Virus record (IMG/VR): IMGVR_UViG_2791355434_000002
Strand: one strand, 5' to 3'
Origin: an uncultured virus (IMG/VR IMGVR_UViG_2791355434_000002)
Taxonomy: Duplodnaviria > Heunggongvirae > Uroviricota > Caudoviricetes
DNA length: 63,857 nt
The notes under the pieces: generated by a model
The model's database searches: none
What the model was told of the DNA's origin: nothing
Seen by the model: the letters and a program-made list of their open reading frames with translations, nothing else
Part shown: positions 20,526 to 40,176 of the stretch, piece after piece
Position numbering within the stretch: the first letter of the stretch is position 1
Layout of the letters: the number at the start of each line of letters is the position of its first letter
Translations under genes and position numbers: made by a program

Positions 20526-21467
20526 TCAGGCGGCCAGGTAGCGGGGCTGGTAGGTCATGCGGACCTCGGTGTCGGCGGTGGACCCGGCGACGGTGAGGGT
20601 GAGTTCGTTGGTGCCGGTCTCCAGGGGCCACAGGGCGGACGCGTCGGAGAGGTCGGGCCACAGGTTCGTGACTCCATTGAGGAGCGCGGTCTGGCGGCGT
20701 TCCCGGGTGTCGATGACGATCGTGTCGGTGCCGGTGATGGTGCGGGTGAGGACGAGGGTCTGCCCGGTCGTCACGTTGGTGAGGGTCACCGAGGTGGCCG
20801 GGCCGGTGATCGTCCAGACGGGGAACGCGTCGTCGTCGCCGTCGTTGTCGACAGTGACCGATCCGAGTACCTGGGAGTTGCCGACGACGAGCGGCAGGAA
20901 CGGGAAGAAGTCGCCGCCCGGGTCCGTGCGCCAAGCGTGGGTGACCTCGCCGCCCGCCCAGTACGGGGTTGGGGCGGCGAACGTTATGACGCCGATGCAC
21001 CAGCGGCGGCCCGCGGCGTCGAGGGACTCGTCGCCTTCCATGCCGTCCTGGTAGCGGACCCCGATGCTGCGGGTGCTCCCGTCCGGCTGGGTGAGCGTGA
21101 GCAGGCCTTGGCCGCGCTTGGGGTTGAGGGCGCGGATGAACGTCCGGCGCCGGGCCAGGTAGGCGGCCCTGGAGTCGTGGGCCCAGAACGCCAACGGAAT
21201 CGAGATCGTCTTTCCCTGGGCGCGGACCTGCCGCACCTCGTACCCGTCGATGCCCGGGGACTCATCGGTGGCCATGGCGTAGGCGGGCATGTCCAGCCCC
21301 TTGATGCCGGGCTGCACTACCCAGCCGCGCTCCCAGTCCGTGAGGAGCGTCGTCACACCACCGGGGTCGGTGAACGACAGGAGCGGCATTTCGACGATGC
21401 GCTGCGGCCACTCCCACGGCGGTTGCTGCTCTACCGGTGGAGCCGATGAGGCGATCAGGATCGGCAT
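20526..21467 (-). CDS. Distal tail protein (Dit)
   Basis: Directly after the tape measure gene; GLDMP, FAAPTPYW, LETGTNEL. Confidence 0.85.
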   Translation of the reverse strand: MPILIASSAPPVEQQPPWEWPQRIVEMPLLSFTDPGGVTTLLTDWERGWVVQPGIKGLDMPAYAMATDESPGIDGYEVRQVRAQGKTISIPLAFWAHDSRAAYLARRRTFIRALNPKRGQGLLTLTQPDGSTRSIGVRYQDGMEGDESLDAAGRRWCIGVITFAAPTPYWAGGEVTHAWRTDPGGDFFPFLPLVVGNSQVLGSVTVDNDGDDDAFPVWTITGPATSVTLTNVTTGQTLVLTRTITGTDTIVIDTRERRQTALLNGVTNLWPDLSDASALWPLETGTNELTLTVAGSTADTEVRMTYQPRYLAA

Positions 21468-24400
21468 CAGCTGGCTCCGCTCATGACGGTGCGGTGGAGC
21501 ATGTCCTCGGCGTCGAGGGCGTCGAGGATGCTGCGGCGGGAGGGGACCTCACGGACCAGCGCGTTGTAGTGCAGGTGCCGCTCCGCGCTGGTGTTGTTGA
21601 CGGTGCTGACCTCGGTCCGGGCGACGGTGGCTGCGGCGGTGGATCGGACGGTGCGGGCCATGGTGGCGGCTGCTGCTGCGGCCTGCGGGATGGTGTCGCG
21701 GACGCCCCGGGCGAAGCCGAGCCCGGTGAACCGGCCGAGCGCCTGGAGGACTTGCGACGGCGACTTGATGCGCAGTTCGACCTTGATGGTCTTCTGGATC
21801 TTCTTCGCCAGGTCCGCCATCGCCTTCACGATCGACGCTTCCTGCGCCTTCAACCCCGCCAGGTAACCCTTCCCGGACATCGCCCCGGCGTCGTACATGA
21901 CGTCGGCGGCGTTCTGCCCGTAGACGGTGGCGGCCTTCCCGATCTGCACCTGGGTGGCGTTGATGCTCTTCAGCTGGGCGTCGGTCGCCTTGACCAGGGC
22001 CGCGGCATACGGTGCGCCCTGGTCCGGGCCCGCGGCGATGAGCTGGCTGAGGAACTCCTTGGACAGGCCCCGCTTGCCGAGCGTCGCGATGTTGGAGGAG
22101 AACGTCTGGAGCTGCCCGAGGCGCACCTTGAGCCCGTTGAGGATGCCGTCCGCCCCGAACGGCAGACCGGAGTTCGGCAGCCCGGTGAGGGACGCGAACG
22201 ACGAGGCGGACGCGGTGGTCTCCGCGGCGAACGTGTTGGCCTGGGCGATGCGGGCCCGGAGCGCGTCACGCTTCCCCGCCAAGTTCTGGAGGGTCTTGTT
22301 CTGGGCGGTCAGGTTACGGATCAGCCGGTCGTCGAGGGTGGTCTTGACGCCCTTGAAGGCGTTCTTCACGGCGGTGGCCACGGTGGTCATGGACTTGTCG
22401 ATCGCGGACGCCGTACCGGCCAACGCCTTGAGGAAGTTCGCCCCGACGGAGGCGGCGATCGGTCCGGTGTCGATGCGTTTGCCACCGACCCGGATGATGC
22501 CGCCCGTGGCGTACCCGCCGTCCCTGCGCAGCCCGGTGTGGATCTGCACGCCGCCGACGATGCCGCCGCGGGCGTATCCGCCGATCCGGTTGTACGCCGC
22601 GGACAGCGACCCGTAGCGGGCGAGGGCGTACCGCATCGAGGCGTAGATGTTCGCCATCGGGTCGGTGCTGACGCCGTACATGAACGGCCCGGTCTTGCGG
22701 TACTTCCCGGCGTAGGCCTTGAACGTCGGCTCGATCACCTGCATCAGCCCGACGGACGGCGTGCCGTTGATCCAGTTGATGTCGTTGCGGTTGACCGCCC
22801 GGGTGTTGCCGCCGGACTCCTGGTTCATGCGGCGGAGCGTCGTGTTCACCAGGGACAGAGACTGGCCGACCTGCCCCAGCGCCTGGGTGACCACGCCGCG
22901 GAAGCGCTCCACGCCCGCCCCGGCGTCCCCGCCGGTGCCGCCCTCCAGGTAGCGCATCGGGTCGACGGTCCGCCCGTTGATGCGGGCTTCGAGGTGGAGG
23001 TGGGGGCCGGTGGTGTTGCCGGTGGCGCCGACCCGTCCGATCTGCTGGCCCCGCTTCACCGTGTCCGAGGCTTTGGCGAGCATGGCGGACATGTGGGCGT
23101 ACAGCGACGACAGGCCCGCCCCGTGGTTGATCTCGATGTGCTTGCCGTAAGGCCCCGAGTCGACCGCCTTGCGGACGATGCCGGAGTCCACCGCCCGGAT
23201 CGGTGTGCCGGTCTTCGCAGGGAAGTCCAGACCGGTGTGCCGGCCCGAGCTCCACATGAGCCCGGCCTTCCCGAACGGGGTGCCGTAGGGGGCGCTGACG
23301 GGCTTCAGCCAGTCGCCGGTGCCCTCGACGATGTCCTTGCCGCGGATGTAGTCGATCGCTTTGTTGATGAGCCCGATGGGGGCTTGGGCGATCATGCCGG
23401 GCCAGGTGGCCTTGTTCTTCCCGAGGGTCTTCGTGATGCCGCTCTTGACCGGGGAGAGCGCGGCTTCGGCCAGGTCTGCGAGGCCCCCTCGGGCGACGTC
23501 TGCCCCCTTGGAGAGGACGCTGCCGACGGCGTTGGTGATGCCGTCGAAGATGCCGCCCTCGGCGAAGCCGCGGAACTGGCGCAGCGACTGCCCGCGCATA
23601 GCCGCTTGGTTGACGGCGTGGAGCCGGGCCCGCTCATACGGGTCCCGCATCGCCTCGGAGACGTACACGCCCTCGCCGCGGCGCATCGGCACCAGCTGGT
23701 CGTCGCCCTGCCGCCACGACGACTGGCCGGGCAGGATCCCGCCGCGGGCGAATCCCTTCGGGGTCGGCATCGGTTTGAGGTCGGGCACCCCGGGGATCTT
23801 CGCGGCGGTCTTGTTCCAGACAGGGACGATGCCCTTGTTGTAGACGACGTCGATCCAGAACTTGATGGGCTCCTTGACCAGGTCTTTCAGCCCGGCCCAG
23901 ATTTTCCCGAGGCCCTTCTTCAGGGTGTCGAACGCGTCGCTCAGCTTGTCCGCGAACGCGTCGAACCCGGTGCGGACAACTCCCCACGCTGCGCTCGCGA
24001 TCAGGCCGATGTCGGACCACAGGTTGGACCACGTGGTGGTGACCTTGTCCTTGAGCGCCCCAATGAGGAGGCTGACCTTGTCCCGCAGGTCGGTAAACCA
24101 CTTGAGTGCCCCACCGACCAGGCCAGGGATGCGGCCCTTCGCCCCGAGGAGGTCGCCGTCAAGCCACCGGAACGAGCGGGCGATGCTCTCTGTCAGCCAC
24201 TTCACCGCGTCGATGCCGGGCTGAATGTCCTTGCGGAGCTTCGTCATCGACTTGACGAACGTCTCTACCGCTGGAATGACGACCCGCAGAATCACGGCCG
24301 TGGCCAGCTGAGTCATGAGCATCGTGAGCTGGATCAGCGGCGGCAGCAACGGCAGGATCGCAGGCAGCAGCTGGAGCAGAAACTCGGTACCCAACAGGGC

Positions 24401-27331
24401 CAGTTGCGGAAGCAGGGGGGCCAGGGCGAGGAGGATGTCGCCGATGCTCTTCCCGATCTGCACCAGCGGCGGCACGAGCATCGGGATGATCGGCAACAGT
24501 TGCTGCAGGACCCGCATGAACATCGCCGCGTACTGCTGTGCCAGCTCGCCTATGACCGCCGACAGGCCCTCGATGATGGGGCTGAGGACCGGGCCGAGCA
24601 TCGCGGCGATGCGGGTGACGACCGGGATCAGGTGCGTGAAGACGGTGACGAGAGTCTCGAAGATGGGCGTCACGAGCGGCAGCAGGTCACCGATCAGTTT
24701 CCCGAGGACCGGCAGCATCGGCGACACCGCCTTCACCAGGGCGATGACAGCCCTGGCGGCAACCACCAGCACAGGGCCGAGCGCCTCGGCGACCGGCAGG
24801 AGCGCCTTCCCGAGCGTCTCCATCAGGTTGCTGACGACCGGGCCGAGGAGCCGGGTGATCTGGATGACGGACGGGGCGAGCGCAGCCAGGACCGGCATGA
24901 CGGCCTGAAGTGCAGCGCCCAGGGCGCCAGCGAGGAGCCCGGCGAAGGCCTGCACGGCAGCGAAAATCTGCTTGAGGGACTCCTGTACCTCCGGGAGGGC
25001 GGTGACCCGGCGGATCTCCTCCAGGGCGGACCCGATCACGGCGAAGAAGTCGCCGCCGCCGTCTGCTGCTGCCCCGAAGACGTTCTTGATGATGCCGCCG
25101 AGGTCCGCCAGTACCCTTCCGAAGCTGACCGCCACATCGAGGGCGGTGTTGATGGCTTCTTCGAGACGCCCGTTCTCCAGTCCCTTGGCCAGCTTGTCCA
25201 TGACCCGGTCCATGGCCTCGCCGGCGCCGGTGGTGATGCGGTCCCATGCGGGGCCCGCGGCGATGGTGAGCTGGGACAGGCCGGTGAGGATCTGTCCGGG
25301 GATGCGGTTCATGTTGGCGAGGCCGTTGCGGATGACGTCGAAGGTGCCTCGGAGCTGGCCGCTGCGCTCCAGGTTGTCGACGGCGCTGAGGGCGTTCTTC
25401 GCCATGGTGCTGAGTTCGGTGGCGGCTCCGACGAGCCCGGCCCGGACGGTGGGGAGGATCCGCCCGCCGACGGCCTGGAGGCGTTCCCCGAGCCCAGCGA
25501 ACAGGGCGTCCTGGACGTCGAGTTTCATGGCCCGCCAGGCGGGGGCCATCTCTTGGAGGATGCCGACGAAGCGGCGGGCGTTCGGGGACAGCTTGCTGAT
25601 GGCGTCGTCGAGCTTGGTGGTCTGTTCGGCGGCGTTCTGCTGGGCCTCTGCGACGGCGCGGGTGGCGTCGGCCACGGCCCGGTGGGCGTCAGCCAGGGAG
25701 CGTTCCTGGTTGGCGACCTGCTCGTTCGCCGCCCGGATCCGCTCCTGTGCTTTCACCACCGCGTCGGAGCCTGCGACCCCGGCCCGGTTCACGGCGGCGG
25801 TGTCGACCTGGAGGCGCTTCTGCTGCCGGGCCTGCTCGTCGGCCGAGGCCTTCGCCTTCGCCAGGGCCAGGTCCGCCTGCTGGATCTGCAACTGGGTCGC
25901 GGCCGGGTCCGAGCGCACCGCGGCAAGGTCCACCTCGGCCTGCTGCACATCGAGGGCGGCCTGCCGCTGGTCCAGCGCCCCCTGCCGCAGACGGCGGTTC
26001 ATGTCCTCCAGGTCCCGGGCCGCCTCACGCCGCGCGGCGGACAGTTCCTGCTGGGCTTGGCGGGCGGTGCGCTGCGCCTGGGACAGGGTGCGTTCGGCGT
26101 CGGCGACACCGCGCTGGGCGTTGGCGAGGGACCGCTGCGCGGACTCCACCTGCCGGGCGGCGGTCACCGCCGCTTTCGCTTCGGCCGGTGCCGGGTTGAA
26201 GGCCGCCTTGATGGCGTCGCCGACACCCGAGGTGCCGAGCTTGATCGCAGCAAACGCACTGACCAGCGTGAGGATGCCAGGCGCGGCAACGGCGGCGAGC
26301 GGCCCGAGCTGCCCGATTGCGGAGCCCATCGCGGACAGCTGGGGTGTGGCGAGGAGCGCGGCGGCCGCAATTTTTGCGATGCGCCCGGAGAGGATTCCCG
26401 CTTGGGCGGAGGCGTCGCCACCGCTGCTGCCGAACGATCCGAGGGACGAGGTGATCCCGGCGAGCCCGAACAGGCGGGTGCGGATGTTGACTACCCGGTC
26501 GCGGGCGGCGTGGTTGAGGGCGGTGTTCGCCGCGGCGGTGACGGCGCGGGCGTCGATGCTGGCGGTGCGGCGCCGGGTGAGGTTCGCCAGGTCGTTCGCC
26601 GCAACCCGGGTGTCGACATCGACGCCGAGGCGGACCCTCTGGCGCTGGCCAAGGGCGCGGATTTCGTTGGCGGCGACCCGGGTGTCGACGGTGGCCCTGA
26701 TCTGGACGAGCCGGTCGGCGGTGAGCTTGTCGAGGGCCTTCTGTGCCTTCTTGAACGACGCCTCGTCTACCTTCGCGACGACGTCGGCGGTGGCCTGCCC
26801 GAACCCGTTCAGTTTGGCCTTGGCGGCGGTGTCGTCGAGCTGGGCGACGACCCGCACGGTGCGCTGGTCGATGAGGCGGGCGATCCCCGCTTTTGCCGCC
26901 CGGTCATCCAGCTGGGCCAGGACTCTGACGGTCCGCTGGTCGATGAGCCTACCGATGCCGATCCGGGCCGCCCGGTCATCCAGCTCGGCGCGGACGGTCA
27001 CCGTGCGGTCCCGGGTCACCCGGGTCAGGCCGGAGGTGACGGCCTTATCGTCCAGCTCGGCCGTGACCTTGACGGTGCGGGCTTTGGTGAGCTTGGTGAG
27101 CTTCGCCTCGGCGACCGTCGTCACGAGGTCGACACCGACCCGGACGGTGGGTGTGGCGGCGGCGAGCTTCCGCTGGATCCCGTCGAGGATCTGCTCCCCA
27201 GCAACCTGCCCTGCCATTTTGGCGGGTTGGCGGATGGCGGAGGGCAGCTCGACGCGGAGCCGGTTGCCGAACTGCCGTGTGTCGGGGACGAGTGAGACGC
27301 GGGTGCGTCCGACGAGTGTCGGCTCGGCCAT
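21467..27331 (-). CDS. Tape measure protein with M23 peptidase and lytic transglycosylase domains
   Basis: 1954 aa, Ala/Leu-rich; HTGLDF...YAHMS...TGPHLHLE (M23); QESGGN...GLMQVI...ANIYASMRYA (SLT). Confidence 0.95.
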   Translation of the reverse strand: MAEPTLVGRTRVSLVPDTRQFGNRLRVELPSAIRQPAKMAGQVAGEQILDGIQRKLAAATPTVRVGVDLVTTVAEAKLTKLTKARTVKVTAELDDKAVTSGLTRVTRDRTVTVRAELDDRAARIGIGRLIDQRTVRVLAQLDDRAAKAGIARLIDQRTVRVVAQLDDTAAKAKLNGFGQATADVVAKVDEASFKKAQKALDKLTADRLVQIRATVDTRVAANEIRALGQRQRVRLGVDVDTRVAANDLANLTRRRTASIDARAVTAAANTALNHAARDRVVNIRTRLFGLAGITSSLGSFGSSGGDASAQAGILSGRIAKIAAAALLATPQLSAMGSAIGQLGPLAAVAAPGILTLVSAFAAIKLGTSGVGDAIKAAFNPAPAEAKAAVTAARQVESAQRSLANAQRGVADAERTLSQAQRTARQAQQELSAARREAARDLEDMNRRLRQGALDQRQAALDVQQAEVDLAAVRSDPAATQLQIQQADLALAKAKASADEQARQQKRLQVDTAAVNRAGVAGSDAVVKAQERIRAANEQVANQERSLADAHRAVADATRAVAEAQQNAAEQTTKLDDAISKLSPNARRFVGILQEMAPAWRAMKLDVQDALFAGLGERLQAVGGRILPTVRAGLVGAATELSTMAKNALSAVDNLERSGQLRGTFDVIRNGLANMNRIPGQILTGLSQLTIAAGPAWDRITTGAGEAMDRVMDKLAKGLENGRLEEAINTALDVAVSFGRVLADLGGIIKNVFGAAADGGGDFFAVIGSALEEIRRVTALPEVQESLKQIFAAVQAFAGLLAGALGAALQAVMPVLAALAPSVIQITRLLGPVVSNLMETLGKALLPVAEALGPVLVVAARAVIALVKAVSPMLPVLGKLIGDLLPLVTPIFETLVTVFTHLIPVVTRIAAMLGPVLSPIIEGLSAVIGELAQQYAAMFMRVLQQLLPIIPMLVPPLVQIGKSIGDILLALAPLLPQLALLGTEFLLQLLPAILPLLPPLIQLTMLMTQLATAVILRVVIPAVETFVKSMTKLRKDIQPGIDAVKWLTESIARSFRWLDGDLLGAKGRIPGLVGGALKWFTDLRDKVSLLIGALKDKVTTTWSNLWSDIGLIASAAWGVVRTGFDAFADKLSDAFDTLKKGLGKIWAGLKDLVKEPIKFWIDVVYNKGIVPVWNKTAAKIPGVPDLKPMPTPKGFARGGILPGQSSWRQGDDQLVPMRRGEGVYVSEAMRDPYERARLHAVNQAAMRGQSLRQFRGFAEGGIFDGITNAVGSVLSKGADVARGGLADLAEAALSPVKSGITKTLGKNKATWPGMIAQAPIGLINKAIDYIRGKDIVEGTGDWLKPVSAPYGTPFGKAGLMWSSGRHTGLDFPAKTGTPIRAVDSGIVRKAVDSGPYGKHIEINHGAGLSSLYAHMSAMLAKASDTVKRGQQIGRVGATGNTTGPHLHLEARINGRTVDPMRYLEGGTGGDAGAGVERFRGVVTQALGQVGQSLSLVNTTLRRMNQESGGNTRAVNRNDINWINGTPSVGLMQVIEPTFKAYAGKYRKTGPFMYGVSTDPMANIYASMRYALARYGSLSAAYNRIGGYARGGIVGGVQIHTGLRRDGGYATGGIIRVGGKRIDTGPIAASVGANFLKALAGTASAIDKSMTTVATAVKNAFKGVKTTLDDRLIRNLTAQNKTLQNLAGKRDALRARIAQANTFAAETTASASSFASLTGLPNSGLPFGADGILNGLKVRLGQLQTFSSNIATLGKRGLSKEFLSQLIAAGPDQGAPYAAALVKATDAQLKSINATQVQIGKAATVYGQNAADVMYDAGAMSGKGYLAGLKAQEASIVKAMADLAKKIQKTIKVELRIKSPSQVLQALGRFTGLGFARGVRDTIPQAAAAAATMARTVRSTAAATVARTEVSTVNNTSAERHLHYNALVREVPSRRSILDALDAEDMLHRTVMSGAS

Positions 27332-31251: not shown

Positions 31252-32109
31252 TTACGCGGGGTCGATGAACGCGACCGCGATCCCGGTGGGCCGCAGGAGC
31301 TTCGCGCCGTACACGTGGAGACCACGGATCGCGTCGGCGATCGTGTTCTGAAGTCGCAGCGCCTCGGTCTCCAGGATCTGCTCGGCGTAGGTGATCGCAC
31401 CCGGGTATCCGGCCTGGATGACCTGCGTGTCGCCGCTGGGCACGGGGGTGTTGTTCGACTTGAGGATGTCGAACCCGGCGGCCCGTCCGACCATGCCGTT
31501 GCGCAGACCGGTCTCGGTGCCGGAGGCGTCCACGCGAACGAAGCGGTCGTCCTTGAGGAGGGAGCCCTCGAACTCGGGGCTGACGACCACGTAGCGGCCC
31601 TCGGAGGGGACGTTGCTGCGGTCCAGCTTGGTGCGGAGCGGCACCAGCACCTTGTCGTAGGCGTCCGTGGCCGTGGTGTACGTGTTGATCGGGGCGCCGG
31701 TGGAGCCGAGGGTGTTCGCGGCGGAGACCCCGGTGTAGAGGGAGGCGACGTAGGCGTCGGCGCGGTCACGGAGCCCGTAGGCGGCGTTCTGCGCCATCTT
31801 GACCATCGGGTTGAGGAGGGCCTGCGCCTTGTCGACGTCGTCGAGGCGGAACGCGAACGCCTTGGCCTGGTCGATGATCAGGTCGGTTCCGGCGGTCTCG
31901 ACTTCCTCGTAGTTGAGGTTGCTGTTCTTGTCGTAGTCGAAGATCGTCGGGTCGCCGATGGTGGTGATGTGCACCGACTGGCCCTGGGTGGAGATCTCGC
32001 CCTCGTAGTCGCGGTTGACGAGTGCGGGCTGGGCGTAGACGAGGGCGTTCTCCAGTGCGTCCAGCAGCTGGGCGGACCAGATCTCGGGCTTGAAGTTGTT
32101 GATGGACAA
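31252..32109 (-). CDS. Major capsid protein (P22 coat/HK97 fold)
   Basis: FKPEIWS...NRDYEGEI...IDQAKAFAFRLDDVDK...RGLHVYGAKLLRP; GGAG RBS, TTG start. Confidence 0.92.
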   Translation of the reverse strand: MSINNFKPEIWSAQLLDALENALVYAQPALVNRDYEGEISTQGQSVHITTIGDPTIFDYDKNSNLNYEEVETAGTDLIIDQAKAFAFRLDDVDKAQALLNPMVKMAQNAAYGLRDRADAYVASLYTGVSAANTLGSTGAPINTYTTATDAYDKVLVPLRTKLDRSNVPSEGRYVVVSPEFEGSLLKDDRFVRVDASGTETGLRNGMVGRAAGFDILKSNNTPVPSGDTQVIQAGYPGAITYAEQILETEALRLQNTIADAIRGLHVYGAKLLRPTGIAVAFIDPA

Positions 32110-37443: not shown

Positions 37444-37465
37444 GGGCCGCCCCGAAGGACGGCCC
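37444..37465 (-). terminator. UUCG-tetraloop hairpin between convergent units (portal versus RAMP operon)
   Basis: Minus strand gggccgtcc-TTCG-gggcggccc, directly 3' of array 4. Confidence 0.7.
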
Positions 37466-37537
37466 ACCATGGATTGCCTCGCCACGCCCAGGCGCGCCCC
37501 GGCGTGACTTGCCGTGCCTGCCGTACCGAGCCAGGCC
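37466..37537 (-). ncRNA. Pentamer-periodic array 4, putative guide RNA
   Basis: Minus strand: ggc ct ggc tc ggt ac ggc a ggc ac ggc aa gtc ac gcc gg ggc gc gcc tg ggc gt ggc ga ggc aa tcc at ggt. Confidence 0.75.
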
Positions 37538-37545
37538 CGTGTCCC

Positions 37546-38667: not shown

Positions 38668-38755
38668 ACCAAGCCTTGTCTCGCCTGGCCTTGACTTGCC
38701 ACGTCGGGGCCCGCCATGGCAAGGCTCGCCACGCCTGGACAAGCCAAGCGGCGCC
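38668..38755 (-). ncRNA. Pentamer-periodic array 3, putative guide RNA
   Basis: Minus strand: ggc gc cgc tt ggc tt gtc ca ggc gt ggc ga gcc tt gcc at ggc gg gcc cc gac gt ggc aa gtc aa ggc ca ggc ga gac aa ggc tt ggt. Confidence 0.8.
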
Positions 38756-38758
38756 TTG

Positions 38759-38807
38759 TGGTGCGTGGGCGTGCGGGGAGTCGAACCCCACCGAAGACCA
38801 TCCGCCC
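38759..38807 (-). ncRNA. tRNA-like minihelix separator (copy 2)
   Basis: gggcg-gatggtcttcg-gtgggg-TTCGACT-ccccgc-a-cgccc-acgcacca. Confidence 0.7.
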
Positions 38808-38814
38808 TGTACTG

Positions 38815-38877
38815 CCCATGAGTGGCCTTGCCAGGCCATGGCCCGCCAAGTCACACCTCGTCGCGCTAGGCCACGTC
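38815..38877 (-). ncRNA. Pentamer-periodic array 2, putative guide RNA
   Basis: Minus strand: gac gt ggc ct agc gc gac ga ggt gt gac tt ggc gg gcc at ggc ct ggc aa ggc ca ctc at ggg. Confidence 0.75.
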
Positions 38878-38878
38878 C

Positions 38879-38922
38879 TGCGTGGGTGGCGGGGAGTCGA
38901 ACCCCGCTACGACCATCCACCC
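38879..38922 (-). ncRNA. tRNA-like minihelix separator (copy 1)
   Basis: gggtgg-atggtcgta-gcgggg-TTCGACT-ccccgc-caccc-acgca. Confidence 0.72.
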
Positions 38923-38925
38923 GGC

Positions 38926-38983
38926 CCCAAGGCTTGCCTTGCCATGGCTTGGCACGTCCGGGCTAGACATACCGAGCCACGCC
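38926..38983 (-). ncRNA. Pentamer-periodic array 1, putative guide RNA
   Basis: Minus strand: ggc gt ggc tc ggt at gtc ta gcc cg gac gt gcc aa gcc at ggc aa ggc aa gcc tt ggg. Confidence 0.75.
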
Positions 38984-39115
38984 TTCCAAGCGGTGCCACG
39001 GACACTTCGTGACCTCGGAGAGCGTGCTACGACGCTAACACACGTCACCTTCAAAGTAGAGGCTGAACGCCACTGCTACCTACGAATCCCAGGAGGAGTG
39101 TTTTGCGGTGAAGTC

Positions 39116-39301: not shown

Positions 39302-39470
39302 TTAGCGGCGGCGGGTGCCGCGTCGTGCGGGGAGTGTGCGGTAGCCGGTGGTCTTGCCGTGGCTGCGCTTCCGGGCGCGCGACCAGCGCTTCGAGAAGGT
39401 CTGCTTGGTGGCGTACATCCAGCTATCGCCACTGGGCTCGGGAACGGACTTGTCCGCGTCTACGTGGCAC
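39302..39470 (-). pseudogene. Frameshifted small Arg-rich protein
   Basis: VPRRRGQVRSRAQWR-stop; removing 4 nt (ATAG) restores QWRWMYATKQTFSKRWSRARKRSHG... Confidence 0.45.
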
Positions 39471-40176
39471 AGTGATCATCACCTCCTTCGAGGTAGGCCT
39501 TGGCGGCGGCCCACCAGTTCGGGTGTTCCACGTAGTGGAGCACCATGTTGCAGGTACGGCAAAGGGCGCCGCGCACTCTGCCCGTCTCGTGACAATGATC
39601 CAACGCCGTCGCCGGTTTGGCGCGACAGATCCAACATTGACCGTCGAAGTGCTCCACCATTCGCTGCCATTGAGGTGCACTTACCCCATAACGGATCAGT
39701 CGTGCACGACCGGCCGTGCTACCTGTGCAGTCCACGCACCAACGCTGTCGATTACTCGTGGGTTGGTACGGCTTCTCGCAGATGGCGCACGCTCGTTTAG
39801 TCGTGGGTCTCCGCTGCACGTTCACGTTTGAGCAGGCGCGCGAGCAGTGGGAGACGGTGCGAACCTTGGGGGCGAAGGACTTGCCACAGTTGGCGCACGG
39901 CTTGGTGCGCGCTTCCTGGGCGGCCTGCGAGTACCCGACCCCGAAGCAGGCTCGCGAGCAGTAGCGTCGCGGTCTTGCCCTCTTGTCTGGCCGGTAACTG
40001 AACTGGGTGTCGCACGTCTCGCACGCCATCAACACATAGCCTTCGGGGTGCGGCTTCCTCTGGGCTGCACCTGAACAGGATCGCGAGCAATACTTGACCT
40101 CACGGTCGTATCTCACTCGGTGATCGAATGATGTTCCGCACTGTTGGCATACTGACCTGGCTATACGCTTGGGCAT
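39460..40176 (-). CDS. Endonuclease VII-family (HNH-like) nuclease with repeated zinc-ribbon domains
   Basis: CWIC...LDHCHETGRVRGALCRTCN; three CxxC...(Y/H)CSRxC repeats plus a fourth variant. Confidence 0.9.
   Translation of the reverse strand: MPKRIARSVCQQCGTSFDHRVRYDREVKYCSRSCSGAAQRKPHPEGYVLMACETCDTQFSYRPDKRARPRRYCSRACFGVGYSQAAQEARTKPCANCGKSFAPKVRTVSHCSRACSNVNVQRRPTTKRACAICEKPYQPTSNRQRWCVDCTGSTAGRARLIRYGVSAPQWQRMVEHFDGQCWICRAKPATALDHCHETGRVRGALCRTCNMVLHYVEHPNWWAAAKAYLEGGDDHCAT

Follow-up and report, generated by a model that had tools for sequence, protein, structure and literature searches.

What are the two short, tRNA-like elements that lie upstream of a minus-strand gene in this viral DNA, and how might they serve the RNAs that they punctuate? 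The window, meaning the whole 63,857-nt stretch that was analysed (IMG/VR record IMGVR_UViG_2791355434_000002, from an uncultured virus), has a G+C content of 64-73%, and both elements lie in the non-coding stretch, about 430 nt long, that precedes that gene. They had been noted in a preliminary description as two related units, each with an acceptor-like stem, an ATGGTC linker, a T-arm and the string ACGCA; all of these parts are present where they had been placed, and it can be added that both elements are encoded on the minus strand.

The genes relevant to the setting, together with one conserved non-coding block, are listed here:

21467-27331: an ORF of about 1950 aa, probably the tape measure gene, judged by length and position only
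31252-32109, minus strand: major capsid protein, a phage gene
34489-35739, plus strand: large terminase, a phage gene
35755-37434, plus strand: portal, a phage gene
37546..38058, minus strand: vap-like accessory gene, 170 aa, overlapping the vipr stop codon
38055..38627, minus strand: vipr, 190 aa, a RAMP/Cas7-like predicted guide-RNA binder, assigned by homology to the SUSP1 Vipr protein
39020..39060, minus strand: conserved block 5′ of the first tract, a putative promoter of the vrRNAs, vipr and vap
39460-40176, minus strand: endonuclease VII, a phage gene

The vipr gene identifies the locus. Its product alone aligned with chain D of PDB entry 36pp over residues 4-186, nearly the full length (E 7.9e-32), and a profile built from 25 relatives found a single match among solved structures, the same chain, entitled 'SUSP1 Vipr protein' (E 3.1e-48). 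The protein is a member of phrog_4652, a family of unknown function, has more than 1000 close relatives, and retains the conserved G-loop GLGDYRPRYGRF. Its AlphaFold2 model (pLDDT 90.9), compared by Foldseek with a library older than the Vipr structure entries, matched Csm3, Cmr4 and type VII Cas7 chains best, with 45 matches at E ≤ 0.001. The vap-like product showed homology in BLASTP to gp77 of Gordonia phage MakoManhole (E 7e-21), which is annotated as 'DNA binding protein' and encoded directly after that phage's vipr, and matched the product of the gene after SUSP1 vipr weakly (E 5e-5); no Pfam family was found in it above the cut-off. Given that the gene just downstream of the non-coding stretch encodes a full-length homologue of SUSP1 Vipr, the locus is a VIPR system, a new member of a system described in 2026, and the window contains the VIPR locus of a high-G+C (Streptomyces-type) phage or prophage.

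At the DNA level, a search of the intergenic region against annotated phages returned no matches, and a search for near relatives with 10 kb of DNA returned a terminase match only. The conserved block at 39020..39060 shares 36 of its 41 bases with the closest relative found (locus L095) and aligns with a conserved block in three other loci (L087-L089); a scan with the sigma-70 consensus found no promoter within it.

According to the preprint text in which it is described, VIPR (Viral Interference Programmable Repeat) employs a RAMP protein, Vipr, that coats a vrRNA of 9-16 YNNGG pentamers, whose NN dinucleotides read DNA with a one-nucleotide skip; after the pentamer tract comes a structured 3′ tail, invariable and some 40 nt long, which that text likens to the repeat handle of a crRNA, and a vap gene follows vipr (10.64898/2026.04.26.720920). 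In the SUSP1 clade, as the texts of the VIPR preprints have it, the tail is a pseudoknot that is kept on the mature vrRNA and caps the Vipr filament (10.64898/2026.04.26.720920; 10.64898/2026.04.26.720927).

The sequences that the preliminary description had called arrays, and that it saw as separated by the minihelices, are NNGGY pentamer tracts in a 5-nt register, so that the minihelices do indeed punctuate guide-RNA tracts. Three tracts lie upstream of vipr and a fourth candidate lies downstream of vap:

38923..38999, minus strand: tract A, the guide of vrRNA-1, about 15 NNGGY-type pentamers by pentamer parse
38808..38878, minus strand: tract B, the guide of vrRNA-2, 12 pentamers in one phase (38874-38815) followed by a linker, CAGTACA
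38668..38757, minus strand: tract C, 18 pentamers in one phase, with no tail, running into the vipr ribosome-binding site
37444..37543, minus strand: a possible fourth vrRNA downstream of vap, about 15 pentamers (37543-37466) and a hairpin (37465-37444)

The order along the minus strand is thus putative promoter, tract A with minihelix 2, tract B with minihelix 1, tract C, vipr and vap. Tract A includes several degenerate units (NNGCC, NNGTC) and one 4-nt unit, and strict GGY units make up six of the 12 in tract B and 10 of the 18 in tract C, the remainder being degenerate, of the G-N-Y type. Such internal degeneracy is described as frequent in vrRNA tracts in the text of the VIPR preprint (10.64898/2026.04.26.720920). 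The last tract is likewise tail-less in L088, L091 and L095, and tract C may be a leader bound by Vipr. The possible fourth vrRNA ends not in a minihelix but in a plain hairpin capped by UUCG (37465-37444).

Searches for the targets of these guides gave no match above background. In IMG/VR, no sequence exactly matches the full skip-rule pattern of the 12 tract B units, and a mismatch-tolerant scan over the window and related loci (0.62 Mb) gave best scores of 21/30, 18/24 and 22/36 for the three tracts, compared with maxima of 22, 19 and 25 for controls in which the units of the tracts were shuffled.

The two minihelices, with their parts written 5′ to 3′ on the minus strand, are:

38879..38922, minus strand: minihelix 2, the predicted 3′ tail of vrRNA-1, acceptor GGGTG/CACCC
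38922-38917, GGGTGG; 38916-38911, ATGGTC; 38910-38908, GTA: 5′ part of minihelix 2
38907-38902, GCGGGG; 38901-38895, TTCGACT; 38894-38889, CCCCGC: T-arm of minihelix 2
38888-38884, CACCC; 38883, a discriminator-like A; 38882-38879, CGCA: 3′ part of minihelix 2
38759..38807, minus strand: minihelix 1, the predicted 3′ tail of vrRNA-2, acceptor GGGCG/CGCCC with a G-A junction
38807-38802, GGGCGG; 38801-38796, ATGGTC; 38795-38792, TTCG: 5′ part of minihelix 1
38791-38786, GTGGGG; 38785-38779, TTCGACT; 38778-38773, CCCCGC: T-arm of minihelix 1
38772-38767, ACGCCC; 38766, a discriminator-like A; 38765-38759, CGCACCA, the trailer: 3′ part of minihelix 1

Stacked end to end, the two stems of minihelix 2 give 5 + 6 bp (11 bp) and those of minihelix 1 give 5 bp, a G-A mismatch and 6 bp; an unpaired A and then CGCA, the start of the trailer, are common to both. 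Only 9-10 nt separate the 5′ strand of the acceptor from the T-stem, too few to hold either a D arm or an anticodon arm, so that the reported lack of an anticodon arm is borne out and extends to the D arm. The two copies had also been said to differ in ways that preserve pairing, and this holds as well: a T-A pair of the acceptor is replaced by C-G, a compensatory change, and a C to T change in the T-stem gives G-U. The T-arm 15-mer GGGGTTCGACTCCCC occurs exactly twice in the window, both times within the minihelices.

Standard tools did not recognize these elements. ARAGORN found no tRNA gene in the whole window and no Rfam family reached its gathering score over the window, the best sub-threshold match being mascRNA-menRNA (RF01684) with 19.8 and 14.9 bits against a cut-off of 42.5. 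Thermodynamic folding of each minihelix alone was not better than that of shuffled sequences (z -0.46 and -0.47), and support for the fold therefore has to come from comparison with other sequences. When the 412-nt leader was folded whole (z -2.12) the minihelices were not kept in the resulting structure.

For this comparison, a search pattern made from the two window elements was matched to 83 IMG/VR stretches holding 76 distinct elements, 64 of which were used to build a covariance model. The 12 that were dropped have a linker of 0-4 nt, and inspection by eye showed no 5′ flank that could pair; ARAGORN places five inside tRNA-Leu(taa) genes. The share of cells that pair across the 64 phage elements is 90.8%, a level reached by none of 500 shuffled alignments, which gave 68.8 ± 1.1%; covariation scores 0.527 and falls to 0.183 or less when the partners are slid. 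Four of the 12 pairs were preset by the search pattern and are hence uninformative; seven of the eight pairs outside it change on both sides. The consensus stack is 6 + 6 bp, and directly past the acceptor stem 35 of the 64 rows have A; at the next position 53 of the 64 have C. Searched with this model, the window gave two matches only, the two minihelices, at 60.1 and 54.3 bits (next best 12.9 bits, E 0.21), a result that follows by construction since both window rows were among the model rows.

A covariance model search near homologous genes had been proposed in the preliminary description as a check, and with filters off it found 20 tails in 13 of 21 loci that had been reached through the protein, four of the 20 being duplicates of model-building rows. 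In these protein-anchored tails 91.1% of cells pair (59.9% in shuffles) and 10 of the 12 pairs change on both sides, figures to be read with the bias of covariance-model alignments towards the model structure in mind; the T-loop is UUCRANY, and a closing G-C is present in 19 of 19. A survey of 80 protein-anchored genome loci gave 16 model matches in 10 loci, all on the vipr strand; one match, at 1999-2039 of L104, was rejected as a false positive, since it falls within the vipr coding sequence. T-loop hairpins sought with a looser scan numbered 38 on the vipr strand against five on the other. Some of these are real tRNAs and others are tails that follow pentamer tracts; the tract-then-tail arrangement reaches loci of Bacteroidota, Saccharibacteria, Armatimonadota and Planctomycetota. 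The same tails were also found in two cultured phages, Gordonia phage MakoManhole and Mycobacterium phage LittleE.

On this comparative evidence it is quite likely that the minihelices adopt a tRNA-like fold. The tail would correspond to the top half of a tRNA, a coaxial stack of acceptor stem and T-stem with 12 positions, in which the T-loop UUCGACU is closed by G-C and the GG of the linker is placed so that it could touch the T-loop, as the D-loop does in tRNA. A different contact, pairing of the linker GGTC with the T-loop GACT, was considered and set aside, since the loop varies while ATGGTC is fixed and the linkers ACGGCA and AATGGTT misfit by eye. A GG contact of the tRNA-elbow type is preferred over it.

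Whether these folded elements belong to the guides was judged from the closest relative found, L095, whose Vipr is 95% identical to that of the window. Minihelix 2 (38922-38880) shares 39 of 43 bases with its counterpart and minihelix 1 shares 46 of 49, all three differences falling in the trailer. The tracts share far fewer: 51 of 81 bases for A (39003-38923), 53 of 72 for B (38879-38808), where L095 has a 10-nt insertion, and 31 of 91 for C. Tails that are 91-94% identical beside tracts that are 34-74% identical form the pattern described for vrRNAs and support the VIPR identity, and it is because each minihelix follows a tract that it is read as a vrRNA tail. The minihelices are thus very probably the conserved 3′ tails of two vrRNAs of a phage VIPR system. 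The proposal that they substitute for CRISPR repeats needs to be modified in this light; the handle role stands, while the element is probably a retained 3′ tail, in the order of tract then minihelix that is found in VIPR.

The likeness to the type II VIPR of SUSP1 covers the Vipr homologue, the vap-like gene, the GGY/NN tracts, structured tails of about 40 nt, arrays that flank vipr, the phage setting, and variable guides combined with conserved tails. The tails themselves differ, that of SUSP1 being an H-type pseudoknot and those of the window nested acceptor/T-arm minihelices; moreover, in the window the units abut each other and the last tract has no tail. The covariance model found no match in the SUSP1 locus (L092), though by eye the first bases of the SUSP1 tail closely resemble the start of minihelix 2. 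A SUSP1-like pseudoknot between linker GTCG and trailer CGAC was tried on the 64 rows and rejected: its partners pair in 58.6% of cells with no real covariation, three of the four pairs showing no two-sided change and the fourth showing it in three of 64 rows, in a test weakened by the presetting of the 5′ side by the search pattern.

The words tRNA, RNase P and RNase Z are absent from the main texts of the three VIPR preprints (the third being 10.64898/2026.10.15.759431) and from the supplement text of 10.64898/2026.04.26.720920, a statement that covers text and not figures, among which a drawing may exist. No paper was found that joins tRNA, RNase P or RNase Z with VIPR, the available text of a preprint recovering VIPR arrays included. 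As far as the searched texts show, the tRNA-like tail and the route of biogenesis that it implies are new.

The minihelix is not confined to VIPR loci. Only 16 of the 80 pattern matches outside the window lie within 1.5 kb of a vipr gene, and those away from vipr stand alone in short gaps between ORFs of the same strand. Five phage records with such a stand-alone minihelix encode no Vipr, and each carries one or two copies. Its presence in phages that lack Vipr argues for recognition by something other than Vipr, and its stand-alone occurrence supports recognition by the host machinery and not by Vipr alone. It follows that the minihelix is an independent RNA module of phages, which some VIPR clades use as a tail.

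How the tail would act follows in part from the spacing of the units. The next tract begins about 5-10 nt past the minihelix stem and a scan for terminators found none on the minus strand between the vrRNA units; given that the units abut with no terminator-like site between them, a precursor must be cut right after each tail. In the searched VIPR texts the cutting of vrRNA arrays into single guides is addressed for the ribozyme-containing types only, in which, according to the text of 10.64898/2026.04.26.720920 including the legend of fig. S19, hammerhead ribozymes are interspersed in type I and type V arrays. These hammerheads indicate that arrays need a cutting module and provide a precedent for one here. 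The vrRNAs of SUSP1 mature in E. coli with no tRNA-like motif, from which it follows that the tRNA shape is not needed for VIPR generally.

For the present locus, we infer that the best-fitting event is a cut of the RNase Z type just after the discriminator A. The tail would mimic the part of a pre-tRNA that is read by RNase Z and RNase P, namely the 12-position stack, the T-loop, the GG and the unpaired A, and by posing as a pre-tRNA without CCA it could enter the host tRNA 3′-end pathway (RNase Z, possibly followed by CCA addition) and be cut after the discriminator. A single cut of this type would be enough to split the precursor, giving one vrRNA its 3′ end and the following vrRNA its 5′ end. 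Vipr protomers would polymerise along the NNGGY tract, with the NN dinucleotides specifying the DNA target, by analogy with the systems already studied, and the tail would stay on the guide as a cap and stabiliser. By the same analogy the mature guide probably retains the tail instead of shedding it as a separator.

The tRNA genes of a Streptomyces genome with a 95%-identical Vipr are consistent with such mimicry. Among the 30 examined, of 68 matches, encoded CCA is absent in 23 and C directly follows the discriminator in all 30; two have the trailers CGCAG and CGCACC, the same as the two window tails. The tRNA-like 3′ trailer and the stand-alone copies in Vipr-less phages strengthen the case for RNase P/RNase Z involvement. 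Judged from the nucleotide sequences, it is plausible, if tentative, that host tRNA enzymes process the vrRNA tails. The whole chain, from vrRNA tails through the tRNA-like fold and RNase Z-type processing to a tail that is retained, might equally well prove right or wrong.

Several points count against this chain. The shape described here is a substrate for RNase P too, a cut by that enzyme would sever the guide from its tail, and nothing in the sequence shows that such a cut is avoided. The 11-bp stack of minihelix 2, one pair short of the consensus, the G-A mismatch in minihelix 1, folding energies no better than those of shuffles, the degenerate tracts, the lack of a matching target and the non-tRNA tail of SUSP1 weigh on the same side.

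Other accounts of the minihelices divide over whether the tail is kept and whether tRNA enzymes are involved at all. It is possible, though doubtful, that the tails serve only as Vipr/Vap-binding caps and 3′ stabilisers, the units being made by other nucleases (RNase E, J or III, or Vipr itself) or from their own promoters, with the tRNA likeness lending stability and engaging no tRNA enzyme. RAMP proteins of the Cas6 and Cas5d type cleave RNA themselves, which suits this account, and so do the conserved ATGG that starts the window tails and the SUSP1 tail alike and, in the text of the VIPR preprints, the maturation of SUSP1 and P. fulva vrRNAs with non-tRNA tails; yet the motif occurs in Vipr-less phages too, and the joint retention of T-loop, closing G-C, GG, discriminator and next C goes beyond what a generic cap would need. 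The model of the preliminary description, in which the minihelices are disposable separators that RNase P cuts on the 5′ side and RNase Z on the 3′ side, freeing tail-less guides and a mini-tRNA, is unlikely. It would account for an acceptor and T-arm stack with the 12 positions that RNase P measures, for G as the commonest first stem base among the 64 elements, and for the stand-alone copies between ORFs, which make sense as two-sided cut sites. RNase P prefers U at position -1, however, and U is rare there (three of 18 rows near vipr, four of 46 stand-alone rows), weak evidence given the G+C content. In the VIPR clade described in the preprint texts, moreover, the tail is kept on the vrRNA and treated as needed for formation of the Vipr complex, and the likeness by eye between the starts of the SUSP1 tail and minihelix 2 hints at a shared role facing the protein. 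Two-sided excision is ranked below the tail-retaining model on the ground that an RNase P cut would detach the tail.

Two simpler origins of such structures were also weighed. That the T-arm hairpins are intrinsic terminators ending each vrRNA would fit their G+C-rich stems at the ends of RNA units and a T-run after the element in the low-G+C locus L070, but neither window element is followed by a T-run, the scan finds no terminator here on the minus strand, and termination leaves the outer stem and the conserved loop unexplained, which makes this account improbable. Decayed tRNA genes or attachment-site remnants with no function come to mind since tRNA genes often serve phages as integration sites and phages often carry the 3′ half of a tRNA, and the T-arm does resemble ordinary tRNA T-arms. 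A remnant of this kind is scarcely credible when dozens of unrelated phage contigs have the 5′ acceptor strand, in covariation with the 3′ strand, when position and strand are constant relative to the tracts and vipr, and when no copy has anticodon-arm remains.

The tail-retaining, RNase Z-type reading may be set beside other known systems. In type I and type V VIPR arrays a dedicated RNA module likewise lies between vrRNAs and would separate them; that module cleaves itself, whereas the module in the window would borrow a host enzyme and, by analogy, probably stays on the guide. With CRISPR repeats and Cas6 the locus shares the alternation of a conserved structured element with variable guides, the element forming the guide handle, and differs in having no gene for Cas6 or another dedicated nuclease in the VIPR locus, in the tRNA shape of the handle and in its guide, a pentamer code instead of a contiguous spacer. 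Compared with canonical tRNA and the tRNA-like domain of tmRNA, the minihelix has the acceptor stem, the T-arm with a UUCRANY loop and its closing G-C, the unpaired discriminator and a GG in place of the D-loop; D stem, anticodon arm and encoded CCA are absent. In MALAT1 mascRNA, the tRNA-miRNA units of murid herpesvirus 68 and engineered tRNA-gRNA arrays, a tRNA-like fold lets RNase P and/or RNase Z define RNA ends. Plant mitochondrial t-elements are similarly described, in the part of the source consulted, as a tRNA-like fold beside another RNA whose ends are set by RNase P and/or RNase Z (PMC1920247). These tRNA-like signals are eukaryotic, organellar or man-made, most with a remnant of the anticodon arm, whereas the window concerns the guides of a bacterial virus and a cleavage that is predicted.

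The broadest reading is speculative and less likely to hold than not: a large branch of VIPR would mature its guides through a 3′ handle disguised as the top half of a CCA-less pre-tRNA, and Vipr-less phages would use the same module alone. The branch would comprise the VIPR systems of actinobacterial genomes and actinophages, to which the looser scan may add Bacteroidota, Saccharibacteria, Armatimonadota and Planctomycetota. Host RNase Z, perhaps with the CCA-adding enzyme, would cut and finish the guides, and in the Vipr-less phages the module might be read by the host as a signal for the processing or stability of mRNAs. The stand-alone copies suggest that phages contain a larger, unannotated family of RNA elements resembling tRNA.

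The occurrence of the same tails in the cultured phages MakoManhole and LittleE makes the question open to direct bench testing. If the tail does recruit host tRNA enzymes, guide biogenesis would be explained for a wide set of VIPR systems. The locus would then also offer a natural precedent for the tRNA-gRNA trick of genome engineering, and would supply a simple rule for designing multiplexed expression of vrRNAs in Gram-positive hosts of high G+C content.

Tract C, the third tract of NNGGY pentamers at the VIPR locus of the window, carries no tail and leads directly into the ribosome-binding site of vipr, and may act as a leader through which Vipr regulates its own mRNA. A tail-less last tract before vipr was also found in the comparison loci L088, L091 and L095, the last of which, the closest relative of the window locus, has a shorter counterpart of tract C (47 nt missing). 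A fourth tract adjoins the convergent portal gene and ends in ATGGT and then a plain UUCG-capped, G+C-rich hairpin, with no minihelix there; it may represent a vrRNA whose tail is of another kind and doubles as a terminator.

38668-38757, minus strand: tract C, 18 pentamers, without tail
37444-37543 (with end hairpin), minus strand: fourth tract, about 15 pentamers, 3' of vap

The word GCCATGGC has one copy in each of tracts C, B and A (at window 38713, 38835 and 38941, in that order), where every copy parses as a degenerate NNGCC unit and then ATGGC. Its count in the whole window is 10 against about two expected, with three of the 10 inside tracts, and the recurrence may be a mere by-product of repeat composition.

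Three kinds of tRNA-like tail, with the linkers ATGGTC, AGAGGCACACA and ACCGGCAGCCA, were found together in a single array of at least seven tract-tail units within about 1 kb.

L074:1200-2300, minus strand: mixed-tail array

In Bacteroidota, Saccharibacteria, Armatimonadota and Planctomycetota, too, the pentamer tracts of Vipr loci are followed 3' by a T-loop hairpin inside a short outer stem, as in AGTG..AATGGTT..TTCGATT..CACT. The tRNA-like tail thus extends beyond actinobacterial phages.

T-loop hairpins after pentamer tracts, non-actinobacterial Vipr loci:
L162:2150-2520
L163:2210-2258
L167:2383
L112:1341
L149:224
L172:1081

One weak covariance-model match (L104:1999-2039, 22.2 bits) is a false one; it falls within the vipr coding sequence, where it coincides with the stretch encoding the G-loop.

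The tRNA-like minihelix was also observed alone between same-strand ORFs in IMG/VR loci. At two more stand-alone copies, a NUMOD4-HNH homing-endonuclease gene, assigned by Pfam hits, has its ATG one base after the end of the element.

Stand-alone minihelices, examples:
L007:1492-1541
L015:1487-1536
L006:1487-1536
L023:1487-1536
L070:1492-1541 and 1936-1985 (two)
L001:2989-3039, before NUMOD4-HNH gene
L002:248-279, before NUMOD4-HNH gene

Copies between same-strand ORFs usually lie a few bases 3' of a stop codon and 15-30 nt 5' of the next ribosome-binding site, number one or two per phage record and carry the trailer A-C-N-A in most cases. The pentamer tract is absent from the phage contigs bearing them, and none of five whole records of such contigs contained a Vipr gene. 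These stand-alone minihelices appear to make up a family of phage RNA elements that has escaped annotation.
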